54,711 nucleotides of DNA from a virus: IMG/VR virus record IMGVR_UViG_3300028888_000177, positions 1 to 54,711 of that record; one strand, 5' to 3'. Shown one piece after another: positions 48,340 to 52,691 of this stretch. A program made the translations under genes and the position numbers. Within the stretch, counting starts at the first letter, position 1. Every line of letters begins with the position of its first letter. Under the pieces are notes generated by a model that worked only from the letters and a program-made list of their open reading frames with translations, was not told the origin of the DNA and made no database searches.

Positions 48340-50661
48340 TTAATATTTAATTATATAGATTGCGGCGACAGGAATTTTATTAGAATTGCTAATCTTATAA
48401 GCATATGTTACTATTACGCGGAAATCTTCATCTCTCAACATATCTTCAAATTCATTTACGCTGATAACCTTATTATCAACTACATTTACAATTTGAATAT
48501 CTTTAAGAGAAATCCCGTCGGCATCATAGTAAAGATGATCCTTATAGATATAATCCTGTCTAAAGTGAGTTTCAATTACATTGTCTACTGGGCCCTTATC
48601 AATGTAGTAAACTCCATCTTTTAATGAATATCTATAAAAACCTGGTTCAAGTTCTACATCAGCAACAATCATAGCCTTTTCTTTATAAACACCATCAACA
48701 TATGCATGATAATAGTCATATGGGTTGCCATTATATAGAATTGAACCTGCTGGTGTCTCATTATAAATGAAAATATAATCATTTTCATAAACTACAGGAG
48801 CATCGCCAATAATCCATACTGTTTTTACATAATCTCCATGATAATTTGCATAATAAGTTCCCTTATCTTCACTTGATAATTTACTTGCTCTTGTCACGGT
48901 CAGATTACTACCTTCTCCAGAAATATAGTAAATAGAGGTGTCATCGGTAATGTAATAAATATCACCGTCTTTTTCAAGATAAGAAGTTTTATTTTCTTTC
49001 TTGTTTAAAGTGCAATTTTCAACTGCGGCAAGATAAATCTTATCGTGTCTTGAATATACTTTATACACTCCTGGAGCTTCAACTTCTTCAGAAAGTCTAT
49101 AAACTGTATCTTCTCCATTTTCATCAATACACTGGACATAAGATCTCTCAGTCAATTCGCCCCAATCGTCTACGACCTCACGGGTCCAACTCTTTACAAC
49201 AAAAACAATTCCAGATAGATCGTTTGGTTCTACTAATTCTGCTCCGAAATATTTTCCTTCGCAGTCAAGATAAAATCTGATAGTATCTCCAACTTCAATG
49301 TCTTCTTGATCAATACCATTATAGAAAGGAATGTTGCTATCGTAGACACCAGGTTCAATTGTCATATTGTTGAAATAGCCTGGATATTTGAGAGAACGCT
49401 CAGAAATTTTCACTACCTTAGTTGTAGTTGGTTTCAAATAGACCAAATCGCCAACAGTATAGAATGTGACATAATCACCTTTTTCAAACTTATAAGTATT
49501 CTCAATCTCTTCATCATAATTTCTTAGGTAAATGAATTCATCATCTACTCGACGCACTAAATCAATAGTATAAGAAGTAGTCATATAATTCATTACCATG
49601 CCATTTTTATCAAATACAAATACGCCTGTCAATTTGTGCTCGTGTTCATCACGCTTGAGTTCAATAATCTCTAAATCAGGCAAATTATTTTTTACTTCAT
49701 TGTAGTTATTCAAACAAGAAATATCAGCGAGATTTAAATCAGCATTCTTGCGATTTTTAGTAACAAAAACTCTATAAAGGTCGTCATATGTCTCGCCAGG
49801 CGCACTTACTGAGGAAATATCCTTACAGATATAGCCCTTTGGAACATTACGATTATATGGATTATCTTTATACCAAATCTTCACTTGATGACCCACTACT
49901 TCAAGAGATGTTTCAATATCAAATTTTCCATCGCTTGTCATAGTATATTCATTACCTGTTGCTTGGTTAGAATATACTTCTGTTTCTACCCACTTTAGAC
50001 CCCATACAGATTCAGCAAGAGTTTTGCGGAGACTGACATAGGTATTAAGATCAACATCTTCATAAACCTAGTAAATATCTACCATTACATTATAAATATA
50101 CAATGCAGTTTCTTCTCTTGTTGCAGCATCAGAGTAACTAACTGCTTTAGAATCGTCAAACAATCCAAGTGTCAGACCATCAGATACAGCATTTAAATCC
50201 CAAGAAGGTCCTTCATATTCTCCCTTTACGCCATATCCAATAGCACGTAGAAGAATTGCGGCAAGTTCAGATCCAGTGATTTCACCTTTTGGATCGAAAA
50301 TACCATTACCTCTGCCCTTGACAATATTTCTGGCTGCACAATAATTGATATATTTTGCATACCAACTATTATTATCGACGTCAGTGAAAACGCTTTCTGA
50401 AACTGGAAGCTTTTCTGCGTCTTCGCCCAACAATAGATAAGCAATCATCTTTGTTGCTTCGGCTCGTGTTACTTTGTCTTTAGGTCGAAATTCCATAATA
50501 CCATCATTGTTATTATCATCGCCCTAAATAATTCCCAATCCTGTCATAACTGTTACAGCATCTGTATAATTAATTTCATCTTCATCAGAGAAATTAATTG
50601 CCATAACTGGCATAGATAAAAGAATTGCCATAATTAGAAATAGACTTAAAAATTTTTTCAT
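48340..50661 (-). CDS. secreted SLH-domain (S-layer homology) protein with a large Tyr-rich C-terminal domain; at least 2 in-frame TAGs
   Basis: ATG 50661 with RBS GGAG. Signal peptide 'MKKFLSLFLIMAILLSMPVMA'. SLH repeats 'FSDEDEINYTDAVTVMTGLGII' and 'FTDVDNNSWYAKYINYCAARNIVKGRG'. Track ORFs 50068..50496 and 48340..49941 share a frame joined by a TAG. Confidence 0.65.
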
Positions 50662-50679
50662 AATTTTTCTCCTTTTTTA

Positions 50680-51375
50680 TTATTCTTCTGTTGAATTTCC
50701 TGATTCACAAGTTACATTACAGTATTCACAATCTCCAGAGCATCCTTCACACATCATACAATTAACGCATCCTTCACACTATTCGCAATCCTAACATTCA
50801 TCACATTTTTCACATATATCACAAGAATTATCACAATTTATATTACACATTTTACAAGCATTTGAATCTATTTCTTTATTATTAGCAGCTTGCTCTAATT
50901 GTAAAAAAATTGCGGCGGTAATTATGTCATTAGAACGAACGGTAGGTCCATTAACTTCTTGAGCTATACGATTAAATTCATCTGCTGAAAAAGGGACTAC
51001 TGCATTATAATCTGAGGCGAGTACAACCGTTCCTCCAACTTCGTTTGTTGTTCCTCCTGGTGCACCTGCGCCTTTTTCTTTAGTTTCTGGTGTTTCTGTG
51101 GGAAGTGTTGCTCTTTTACTAATCCAAGCAGCTATTTCATCCCAAACGTTCTAATCAAAATAACCAGGTCCTATAATACCAAGATTAGCAACTGGACGAT
51201 ATGAAAAAGCAAAATCACCTTGCTCACAAGCTAATGAAATAGTTTCTTTCCCCAAATTACACCAAGTCTATGCTGTATCGCAAGAAATTTGACATCCATT
51301 ATTACATTTTTGACAATTGACACACTCTCCCTAACAACTATTACAAGGAGAACAATTAGTACAATAACTACTCAT
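50680..51375 (-). CDS. Cys-rich CxxC-repeat protein (231 aa), candidate radical-SAM substrate; 5 in-frame TAGs
   Basis: RBS AGGAGA. N-terminal 'CTNCSPCNSC*GECVNCQKCNNGCQISC', C-terminal 'CKMCNINCDNSCDICEKCDECQDCEQCEGCVNCMMCEGCSGDCEYCNVTCESG' and a Gly/Pro-rich central region. Entirely missed by the ORF track. Confidence 0.5.
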
Positions 51376-51384
51376 ATAAAGATT

Positions 51385-52617
51385 TCATTCTCCTTTCTTT
51401 AAAAAATCATAATGGCAATTTTTATACAGATATTCCTAAAAAGTAAGATTATTTTCTAAGTATTTTAAAGTAATAGTTGAAAATTCATGCATTAGTCTAA
51501 ACCAATAACAATGTACATAATTATCTTTTCCAAAATCTTGAAATAAATCATAAGATGAAGATGGGCAATTTAGTTCTCCACAAATTTTGTCTAGTGGACA
51601 ATCTAAACAATACTATGGATTGTCACCGCACGTTGTTTTAGAAATATTTAAATATTCTTGTAATAAAGCACTATGTTTTTCTATATTAATGCCATTATAA
51701 ATATCTCCTATATAAAAATGAGATTCTAATTCTTTTGAATCTTGTTCCTAACATCCATAAAATTTACCATCATATCCGACGGACCCTAATCCTGTTCCTA
51801 AACCGCATCTTACGCATTTTCTCTATTGAGGATGTTTTAATTTTAATAAGAGTTCATTATAATCTTTTATCCTTGTAAAACTATCATTGATTGGTGAAAA
51901 ATTAACATTGGGCATTCTGCCTATTTGAAAATAAGAAATCATATACATATAAATTTTTTTAAATTCTTCTTTTAATATATTTAAATTTTTTTCACTCCAT
52001 AGATCTCTACCATTCGGCATCATAAACATATTTTTAAAACCCATATATTCAGCAAAAATATAATTTTCAAAAGTTTTATCTACAGTTGACTAATCAATAG
52101 TAGATCTAAAAGTAACCCAAGGATAATAATATAAAATATCTGGAATATTATTTACTATTAAGTCAAAAGATTTAATATTTTTATTATGACAAGGACGATT
52201 AATATTCTAAGTATCTGGTCCACCGTCTATTGATAGAAGCATACCAAATTCATTTTCTTTCATAAAAGATAATCGTTCTTTATTTAACAAAGTTCCATTA
52301 GTGGTAATACTAAAGGTTAATTCTTTTTTTGAGTACTTGGAATTTCTATATTCTGTTAATGGGACTATAATTTCATCCCACAGAAGAGTTGGTTCTCCTC
52401 CAAAGAAAGTAATACAGGTTTTATCTGTGATTATACCATGCTATTCTTTCCATTCTTTATTTTTCATAATCCAATCCAAAGTATCTTTTGCTGTTGCATA
52501 ATCCATATAATGAGGCTGCTATGCAACAAAACAGTACTTACATGCTAAATTGCAAGCATCTGTTAAATTTAAGCATATATTAGTTGGATGTGCATAACTT
52601 TCTTTATATTCAAACAA
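51385..52617 (-). CDS. radical SAM / SPASM-domain peptide-modifying enzyme (anSME / ranthipeptide-maturase-like); about 9 in-frame TAGs
   Basis: TTG start 52617 with SD-like GGGTGA. 'CNLACKYC' (CxxxCxxC), 'FFGGEPTL', 'SITTNGTLL', 'SIDGGPDT', and SPASM cysteines 'CVRCGLGTG...C' and 'CGDNP*YCLDCPLDKICGELNCP'. Track ORF 51823..52044 is an internal fragment. Confidence 0.7.
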
Positions 52618-52648
52618 ATAGACTCACCCTTTTCTTTTTTGTATTATT

Positions 52649-52677
52649 ATTATACAAAAAAATTCCCCGAAAGTCAA
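52649..52677 (-). promoter_or_regulatory. promoter (TTGACT-17-TGTATAAT) embedded in a terminator hairpin; drives the radical-SAM operon
   Basis: Minus-strand ttgactttcggggaattttttttgtataat. The -35 element lies inside the terminator stem. Confidence 0.5.
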
Positions 52678-52691
52678 GGGACTTTCGGGGA
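52664..52691 (-). terminator. strong rho-independent terminator
   Basis: Perfect 12-bp stem tccccgaaagtc/gactttcgggga with loop AAGG, then UUUUUUUUGU on the minus strand. Lies just after the stop of gene 52697..53035. Confidence 0.65.

Follow-up and report, generated by a model that had tools for sequence, protein, structure and literature searches.

We analyzed a 54,711-nt viral sequence (IMG/VR record IMGVR_UViG_3300028888_000177, positions 1 to 54,711; hereafter the window) and found that it encodes, on the minus strand, a radical S-adenosylmethionine (SAM) enzyme with a SPASM domain, followed directly by a protein with two cysteine-repeat arms around a Cys-free core. The enzyme and the Cys-rich protein form a conserved pair, and we take this pair to be the functional unit. 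From the family resemblance of the enzyme and the comparison of related loci, we consider it probable that the two genes make up a cassette in which the enzyme cross-links, likely through thioethers, the Cys arms of a virion-associated partner, and that the S-layer homology (SLH) gene downstream is a separate element. The parts of the pair are as follows.

51385..52617, minus strand: radical SAM/SPASM enzyme gene, 410 aa, TTG start, 8 TAG codons; assigned by PF04055, TIGR04085 and invariant motifs
50680..51375, minus strand: Cys-rich partner gene, an open reading frame (ORF) of 231 aa with 27 Cys, 5 TAG codons and pI 4.1; family of 212 clusters
51226..51363, minus strand: N-terminal Cys-repeat arm of the partner, residues 5-50, 11 Cys, Cys spacing mostly 3 or 4
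50857..51225, minus strand: Cys-free globular core of the partner, residues 51-173, a conserved folded domain
50707..50856, minus strand: C-terminal Cys-repeat arm of the partner, residues 174-223, 16 Cys, Asp/Glu-rich, assigned from its repeat pattern

With TAG read as Gln, the enzyme, Cys-rich and SLH ORFs lie back to back and occupy 48340-52617. A preliminary description of this DNA, made from its letters alone, had placed ORFs of 410, 231 and 773 aa here, and all three were recovered at those positions on the minus strand. TAG is the sole in-frame stop in each of them, with no TAA or TGA. Estimated from base composition, the chance of a frame this open in AT-rich DNA is ~5e-13 for the enzyme and ~4e-6 for the Cys-rich protein.

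Related loci are designated below by L numbers. Two scans, of GTDB genomes and of metagenome contigs, with the profile of the radical SAM enzyme yielded 62 loci. Approximately 35 of these have an enzyme at least 33% identical to that of the window and enough downstream DNA to be assessed, and in ~32 of them a CxxC/CxxxC-rich ORF begins between 20 nt before (overlapping) and 31 nt past the enzyme stop. No Cys-rich downstream ORF was found in the distant loci, where the enzyme is at most 29% identical (0/9). In loci reached via the partner, the enzyme gene, or its C-terminal end, lies directly upstream in every one, often with overlapping stop and start codons. Two loci (L011 and L012) carry two tandem enzyme-partner pairs, showing duplication of the pair as a unit. 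Of the L011 partners (pairs at 6001-11883), one has 113 Cys in 515 aa, with long runs of CNSCNSCNS, and the other has 96 Cys in 539 aa and 25 TAG codons; L011 is a large phage contig, 57 kb as read, and the enzyme also occurs on a 228-kb contig. A partner of "1141+ aa" at L054 was disregarded as a probable artifact of forced TAG read-through in a standard-code phage.

The pair is also present in phAss-1 (OQ749652), whose enzyme is 35% identical to that of the window and was deposited as two "hypothetical" coding sequences. Right after it we found an unannotated 174-aa Cys-rich ORF with two arms (L013 6153-6674; ~67.8-68.4 kb). A radical SAM enzyme is not mentioned in the publication on phAss-1, and a search of 8 million papers for such a phage pair of radical SAM enzyme and Cys-rich protein found no description, in line with the claim of the preliminary description that no such phage system had been reported.

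The enzyme carries the CX3CX2C motif of the radical SAM superfamily (C22/C26/C29, 52531-52554) and scores 54.5 bits against PF04055 (cut-off 29.5), with an additional match to Pfam Fer4_12. The motifs FFGGEP (71-76) and SIDGG (129-133) follow. The SPASM model TIGR04085 is passed marginally, at 28.2 bits against a cut-off of 27, over positions 1-93 of 93, within the C-terminal 148 residues; the SPASM set comprises seven Cys (51508-51816), arranged as C271-x12-G-x4-C289, C337-x2-C340-x5-C346-x4-C351 and C370. In an alignment of 34 homologs, C22, C26, C29, G73-P76 (FGGEP 72-76), S129, D131 and G132 (SxDG) are invariant, as are all seven SPASM cysteines. From this pattern, the enzyme is predicted to hold two auxiliary 4Fe-4S clusters and one SAM cluster. 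The preliminary description had named the CxxxCxxC, GGEP, SIDGG and SPASM motifs, all of which are present, and had conceded that it would fall if the radical SAM and SPASM models missed the TAG-read translation or if exact translation of the Cys-rich frame contained TAA or TGA. Since both models pass and the frame is free of TAA and TGA, neither objection arose.

The highest-scoring NCBIfam families among 71 matches are the PapB (2e-52), CcpM (4e-38), QhpD (1e-34), nif11-peptide, CXXX-repeat (9e-27) and SCIFF (2e-26) maturases, which are families that cross-link Cys in peptides or proteins. The scores lie far below the curated cut-offs for PapB (NF047865, aligned over its full length; 178.3 bits against 340), QhpD (TIGR03906; 120 against 453), the SCIFF maturase (TIGR03974; 93 against 425) and the anaerobic sulfatase-maturating enzyme (anSME; TIGR03942; 71.6 against 349). 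Because its best matches are all maturases of this kind yet all fall below their cut-offs, we place the enzyme with the Cys-cross-linking maturases, outside the curated families. The nearest solved structures are the SCIFF maturase CteB (5wgg, E 8e-14) and anSME. Only 21 residues precede the first cluster Cys, and the profiles of CcpM, QhpD and ScfB align from their positions 85-98 and CteB from its residue 99 (query residue 14), so that the enzyme has no N-terminal recognition element (RRE) of the type found in maturases of peptides that are made on the ribosome and then modified post-translationally (RiPPs).

In two lineages with enzymes ~38-50% identical to that of the window, the gene is interrupted by an intein (Hint plus LAGLIDADG) just before the third Cys of CX3CX2C (L001 7659-10001 and L047 1969-4317). 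Inteins are typically located at functionally critical sites, and we take this insertion point to support the importance of the gene to the phage. A defense-system assignment was considered and rejected, the PADLOC matches being generic, viperin-like and confined to the radical SAM core.

The partner has no match in Pfam, NCBIfam or PHROGs, and no signal peptide as read from its sequence. A word-indexed search returned nine homologs. A profile search of 1.84 billion cluster representatives returned 212 clusters at E<=1e-3, 112 of them at E<=1e-10. No confirmed match came from scanning IMG/VR with the partner alignment, and tblastn of the partner against GenBank phages gave no match. The architecture is constant across partners, with two Cys arms around one Cys-free stretch, usually of ~100-145 residues, and the number of Cys per protein ranges from 13 to 113. 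In 75 family members, C14, C18, C21, C24 and C32 of the N-terminal arm and C174, C177, C181, C185, C188, C191 and C209 of the C-terminal arm are at least 90% conserved. The core-proximal Cys are thus fixed in position, and the distal parts of the arms expand freely across the family. A first AlphaFold2 (AF2) model of the partner, built from nine sequences, was unusable (predicted local distance difference test score, pLDDT, of 52). The arms are unstructured in the AF2 model, with pLDDT below 50 in the N-terminal arm.

The arms follow a simple grammar, C-(N/Q/D/E)-(S/T/G), which we quantified over 429 Cys in ten partner sequences. N, Q, D or E stands at Cys+1 in 79% of cases (background 20-31%) and at Cys+4 in 55%, and S, T or G stands at Cys+2; the spacing between Cys is 3 in 52% of cases and 4 in 28%. 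In the window protein, N, Q, D or E follows Cys in 74% of cases.

Several links connect the partner to virion morphogenesis. They are independent of one another and circumstantial. The window core (residues 53-166) is homologous to the C-terminal domain of a prophage protein of Lawsonibacter faecis NSJ-52 (profile comparison, 95.7%, E 9e-9), which is made up of an N-terminal Cys arm, an FN3-like region (below the threshold of Pfam fn3) and this core domain. The cassette that encodes it (L017; NZ_JACOPQ010000005, 274598-283635) has the radical SAM gene upstream and tail-fiber genes flanking it, within a prophage; the cultured strain is a possible experimental system. A second match of the window core (hhalign 94.8%, E 5.5e-8) is to the domain that ends the "fibronectin-like protein" of the cultured Bacillus phage vB_BanS-Thrax2. 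The gene for this protein lies directly after the tail-fiber gene and before the lysis genes; the protein is Cys-free and has no radical SAM partner.

In a further group of loci (L018, L062 and L057-L059), the protein encoded after the radical SAM gene has 600-794 aa and carries its Cys arm at the N-terminus or internally. Outside the arm, these proteins are homologous (E 3e-48) to a "virion structural protein" of Pagevirus, whose gene is flanked by those of the tail spike and the tail fiber, and at L058 a collagen-like tail-fiber gene follows the arm-bearing partner. The gene after the pair is of the ClpP family at L001 and L043, where its score is that of a head-maturation protease; at L015 a 217-aa ORF comes next. 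Because the core is homologous to a tail-module domain and arms are grafted onto a virion structural protein elsewhere, the mature partner is most likely virion-associated.

The window is a segment of a TAG-recoded gut phage. It has 78 in-frame TAG codons in 52 gene models, with nearly all genes on the minus strand, and ten tRNA genes, two of them with a CUA anticodon. In the enzyme and Cys-rich genes, TAG aligns with Gln of non-recoded homologs (GC(TAG)EQDS vs GCQEQDS; YFD(TAG)NVW vs YFDQDEW), and both tRNA(CUA) genes have discriminator G73, as do the two tRNA-Gln genes of the window. On account of these alignments, the presence of the tRNA(CUA) genes and the G73 they have in common with tRNA-Gln, we read TAG as Gln. 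In-frame TAG at Gln positions together with suppressor tRNA(CUA) identifies the code as genetic code 15. In GenBank, the nearest relative is phAss-1, which is placed in the "Caudoviricetes code 15 clade"; when 25 kb of the window was compared with GenBank phages by megablast, only a tRNA matched. The suppressor tRNA genes are needed for translating the 15 TAG codons of the unit (8 in the enzyme, 5 in the Cys-rich and 2 in the SLH gene), a count slightly under the 16 or so given in the preliminary description. Its further statement that TAG density peaks here does not hold per gene: TAG codons per 1000 number 19.5 in the enzyme, 21.6 in the Cys-rich and 2.6 in the SLH gene, against 56 in the gene at 21723-22046.

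Gene GC content ranges from 0.235 to 0.52 across the window, and in-frame TAG occurs mainly in low-GC genes. The high-GC genes at 26880-28358, 31830-33176, 38228-40738 and 41914-43455 have no TAG and use CAG instead. The window thus resembles a compositional mosaic in which TAG density is no clean marker of late genes. TAG density as a sign of late expression was rejected as weak, as TAG tracks low GC and is also found in nuclease, ligase-like and GIY-YIG genes.

The elements that delimit and serve the unit are listed below.

52662..52693, minus strand: intrinsic terminator hairpin of the upstream Rv2632c-like gene, 14-bp stem with 7 GC pairs, then a T-run; holds the -35 box of the next promoter
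52649..52677, minus strand: sigma-70-type promoter TTGACT-17-TATAAT for the unit, best match in 6 kb (11/12)
48306..48334, minus strand: intrinsic terminator closing the unit after the SLH gene, 11-12-bp stem (6 GC pairs) and T-rich tail
46416-46490 and 46689-46763, minus strand: two suppressor tRNA(CUA) genes (ARAGORN), 1.6-1.9 kb downstream of the 3' end of the unit

The predicted promoter within the upstream hairpin agrees with the terminator-embedded promoter of the preliminary description. It stands at the same position in L004, L007, L009, L010 and L014 with its -35 box preserved, and the hairpin stem is kept by compensatory changes in L007, L009 and L014 (CCCCGAAAG/CTTTCGGGG vs CGGCGGAAG/CTTCCGCCG). 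Given this conserved promoter and the terminator after the SLH gene, the three genes likely form a single transcription unit running from 52649 to 48306.

The third gene of this unit encodes the SLH protein.

48340..50661, minus strand: SLH gene, 773 aa, 2 TAG codons, co-transcribed passenger; PF00395 77.8 bits (cut-off 20.8)
50599-50661, minus strand: its signal peptide
~50071-50598, minus strand: three SLH repeats
48343-50070, minus strand: 576-aa orphan C-terminal region

As the preliminary description had it, the protein has a signal peptide and SLH repeats; two stretches pass the PF00395 model, and inspection of the sequence gave the third repeat and the signal peptide MKKFLSLFLIMAILLSMPVMA. 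With both a Sec signal peptide and SLH repeats, the protein is plausibly secreted and wall-anchored. A surface-modifying role, such as superinfection exclusion, would be a guess. The C-terminal 576 aa have two matches in 5.8 billion proteins, namely the protein itself and one 52% identical (L014).

The SLH gene starts 18 nt after the Cys-rich gene. In the closest syntenic relatives, L007 and L009 (enzyme 61-62% identical), the gene order is Rv2632c-like, radical SAM, Cys-rich, an optional 105-aa ORF and Thg1, with no SLH gene. L014 has an SLH homolog in the same slot and behind the same terminator-embedded promoter, after an unrelated 309-aa gene, and has neither a radical SAM nor a Cys-rich gene. 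The same radical SAM/Cys-rich/SLH trio occurs in L004, from a second sample, and no SLH gene lies downstream of the pair in ~40 other loci. Among relatives, L004 thus has the three-gene block, and L007 and L009 do not. A cargo site therefore lies between the Rv2632c-like gene and Thg1, and its contents vary between the pair alone, the pair with the 105-aa ORF, the pair with the SLH gene, and the 309-aa gene with an SLH gene. As the closest relatives carry the pair and no SLH gene, and L014 an SLH gene and no pair, we regard the SLH gene as an independent passenger.

SLH-type sequence may also occur in a lysis gene of the window. The C-terminal ~60 residues of the Amidase_2 endolysin (23875-24663, minus strand, 3 TAG codons) resemble one SLH-type wall-binding repeat (W..A...G...GD....P.TR.E), although no model matched this tail. 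A GH25-type endolysin at L018 has a similar SLH-like tail.

We hypothesize that, within the C-(N/Q/D/E)-(S/T/G) repeats, the enzyme removes hydrogen from carbons of the side chains or the backbone and that the resulting radical carbons would be joined to neighboring Cys thiols, giving many thioethers of the ranthipeptide or sactipeptide type. With N, Q, D or E at Cys+1 and, through the 3-residue period, at Cys+4, the products may be short and possibly overlapping thioether rings. Such cross-linking would turn the disordered arms into rigid structures resistant to proteases and redox changes. Since the enzyme has no RRE, it may recognize either the folded core of its substrate or the repeat itself. 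The mature product would be a tail or appendage protein, associated with the virion and made in an anaerobic Clostridia host.

Several observations weigh against this interpretation. The cross-link chemistry is assigned from family resemblance, and the enzyme scores under the curated cut-off of every named maturase family. PapB, CteB and most RiPP maturases use an RRE, which the phage enzyme does not have. Three of the ~35 related loci have no obvious partner. The Pagevirus label "virion structural protein" is a database annotation, and the window pair sits among replication, tRNA and RNA-repair genes, outside a recognizable structural module. TAG richness in the window follows low GC and not late function. 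Finally, in the N-terminal arm, C8-x2-C11-x2-C14-x3-C18 and C18-x2-C21-x2-C24-x3-C28 have ferredoxin spacing, CX2CX2CX3C being the classical 4Fe-4S motif of ferredoxins.

This last point bears on a metal-binding alternative, in which the arms are metal or Fe-S sites, similar to those of a polyferredoxin or metallothionein, and the partner is an electron carrier, cluster donor or metal-stabilized element, with the enzyme acting elsewhere or using the partner as its redox or cluster partner. The positional conservation of the core-proximal Cys would fit such sites, and arms that are unstructured in AF2 are what is expected of an apo metalloprotein. However, a Cys content of 13-113 that grows by repeat expansion suits defined clusters poorly, and the residues between the Cys (N/Q/D/E and S/T/G) are unlike those of ferredoxins, where they are hydrophobic or Pro, or metallothioneins, where they are Lys, Ser or Gly. 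Metal binding also leaves the strict one-to-one adjacency and paired duplication unexplained and sits badly with the grafting of arms onto tail-module proteins; we consider it unlikely. Alternatively, the partner could be a RiPP precursor with the core as an internal "leader," from which the modified arms would be cleaved and set free as small cross-linked peptides (a bacteriocin, signal or anti-competitor). The arms do resemble concatenated SCIFF or ranthipeptide cores, the enzyme matches the corresponding maturase families, and some partners have leader-like N-terminal segments (ELI(D/R)IP repeats in L017 and L051; a conserved ~30-aa segment in L043 and L047). A ClpP-family protease gene also comes after the pair in L001 and L043, and the 217-aa ORF in L015. 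Yet the score of the ClpP-like gene is that of a phage head-maturation protease, and no peptidase, exporter or immunity gene lies beside the pair in the window. The core is a conserved folded domain common to tail-module proteins, not a short leader, and in several phages the arms are carried by large virion or tail-module proteins. A 231-aa partner with neither peptidase nor exporter is not a short precursor, and no Pfam or NCBIfam model, including that of SCIFF or any other RiPP precursor, gave a meaningful match in the 75 family members, so that a relationship to known precursors, which the preliminary description had thought worth checking, found no support. We therefore think a released peptide distinctly improbable.

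The preliminary description had suggested a surface or receptor-masking module made by post-translational cross-linking. In it, the Cys-rich protein, once cross-linked, would work with or on the SLH protein to remodel or mask the host surface. The shared predicted promoter and terminator, the 18-nt gap and the trio in L004 speak for such a three-gene system. The closest relatives, however, carry the pair with no SLH gene, L014 carries the SLH gene in the same slot with no pair, the trio recurs in none of the ~40 other pair loci, and the Cys-rich protein has no export signal. What stands of that proposal is a radical SAM enzyme of the Cys-cross-linking type beside a protein-sized Cys-rich partner. 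Its SLH link, and with it the receptor-masking role, does not, the evidence pointing instead to the virion or tail module, and we regard a functional trio as very unlikely. We give hardly any credence to the remaining alternative, that the enzyme is an anSME-like oxidase that converts Cys to formylglycine or another oxidized residue and makes no cross-links. The enzyme shares the lack of an RRE with anSME, aligns end to end with the anSME models (TIGR03942, 9-360 of 363; PRK13758, 13-369 of 370), and has anSME among its nearest solved structures. Against this, the anSME score of 71.6 against 349 bits is weaker than those of the thioether maturases, the partner lacks the C/S-x-P/A-x-R sulfatase motif, and no sulfatase gene lies nearby.

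Compared with known systems, the cross-linking cassette is closest to PapB/PapA (freyrasin, Paenibacillus polymyxa), the best-scoring curated model, with which it shares a SPASM enzyme with two predicted auxiliary clusters and a substrate with repeated Cys and C-terminal carboxylate or amide acceptors. PapB installs six Cys-to-Asp/Glu thioethers, with the acceptor C-terminal to the Cys at i+1 to i+7 and the bond formed to the carbon next to the carboxylate (PMC12373016). In its sequence grammar, the phage partner would suit such linkages. In contrast, the window partner has no leader and is not a short peptide but a protein of 231 aa (up to 794 aa in relatives) with a folded core, in a family with 13-113 Cys; the acceptors in the phage relatives are mostly Asn or Gln, the genes are in a phage genome, and the phage enzyme has no RRE. 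CteB/CteA, the SCIFF system that makes thermocellin, provides the nearest solved structure, and the alignment starts after the N-terminal RRE of CteB. The SCIFF core (CGECQTSCQSACKTSC...) has a C-(Q/E/K)-(S/T) flavor like that of the arms, but no SCIFF precursor model matches any of the 75 partners. In the QhpD/QhpC system, a SPASM enzyme installs several Cys-to-Asp/Glu thioethers in a protein that is kept in a larger assembly and not secreted. Unlike that system, the pair has no qhp genes beside it (its neighbors are Thg1, tRNA and Rv2632c-like genes), the partner is unrelated in sequence, and the phage arms have many more candidate sites. The CXXX-repeat (TIGR04115), CefB (Cys-every-fifth) and CcpM maturases, of which CcpM is the second-best match, are likewise radical SAM/SPASM enzymes with substrates of periodic Cys. 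The phage enzyme scores below their cut-offs, and its partner differs in a period of 3-4, the C-(N/Q/D/E)-(S/T/G) grammar, two arms around a folded core, and phage encoding.

On the side of the partner, the "fibronectin-like protein" of Bacillus phages (vB_BanS-Thrax1-3, Nate, PBC2 and Sophrita; PHROG 37329 C-terminus) has a C-terminal domain homologous to the window core and 42% identical to the core of the L051 partner, but these proteins have no Cys and no adjacent radical SAM gene. The Pagevirus virion structural protein (Bacillus phage Pascal, CPT_Pascal14) is homologous to the body of the 600-794-aa partners (L018, L057-L059) and differs in having neither a Cys arm nor a radical SAM gene; it is not homologous to the window protein.

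To our knowledge, nearly all known cases of radical SAM/SPASM cross-linking concern short secreted peptides (RiPPs) or a single enzyme subunit, QhpC. The enzyme class is thus already known. What is new is the type of candidate substrate (whole proteins with two arms and 13-113 Cys), the lack of a leader and RRE, the phage and probable virion context, and the size of the unannotated family. We tentatively propose, at somewhat less than an even chance, a widespread new class of virion tail-appendage proteins whose Cys-repeat arms are stapled with dozens of thioethers by an RRE-less radical SAM/SPASM enzyme. If so, phage structural proteins would be seen for the first time to undergo radical-SAM-dependent post-translational modification, and with as many as 113 Cys each they would be the largest known poly-cross-linked "ranthiprotein" substrates. 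Among phages of anaerobic gut Clostridia, at least several dozen lineages carry the pairing. Thioether-stapled arms would mean that phages harden or functionalize virion parts by radical chemistry, would point to an enzyme that cross-links without a leader, in a highly processive way and by a simple repeat grammar, and would assign a function to >200 protein clusters for which all annotation resources are currently blank.

The remaining genes of the window include two tRNA clusters (44959-46763 and 53231-53692), in which one tRNA(CUA) has a U1-U72 mismatch. A Thg1-like tRNA-His guanylyltransferase (47412-48248; PHROG 2e-88), an RlaP-like nucleotidyltransferase (36004-36852) and a PHA02142 OB-fold protein (31830-33176), all on the minus strand, suggest an RNA/tRNA repair set adjoining the tRNA cluster. 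Two tandem NAD-dependent DNA-ligase-like genes lie on the minus strand: that at 12882-14795 has the full domain set and no TAG, and that at 14842-16959 has 23.5% GC, 11 TAG codons and only a BRCT domain detected by Pfam. A major-vault-protein-like protein (38228-40738; MVP_shoulder 3.5e-19, Vault_3 1e-9) and a nearby DUF2828/DUF7788 protein (41914-43455) are also encoded on the minus strand; the former gene recurs in L002, and DUF2828 in L001, L007, L009, L014 and L043. An SPFH/flotillin-like protein with an N-terminal membrane segment is encoded at 26880-28358 on the same strand (Band_7 1.6e-21, Flot 4e-7).

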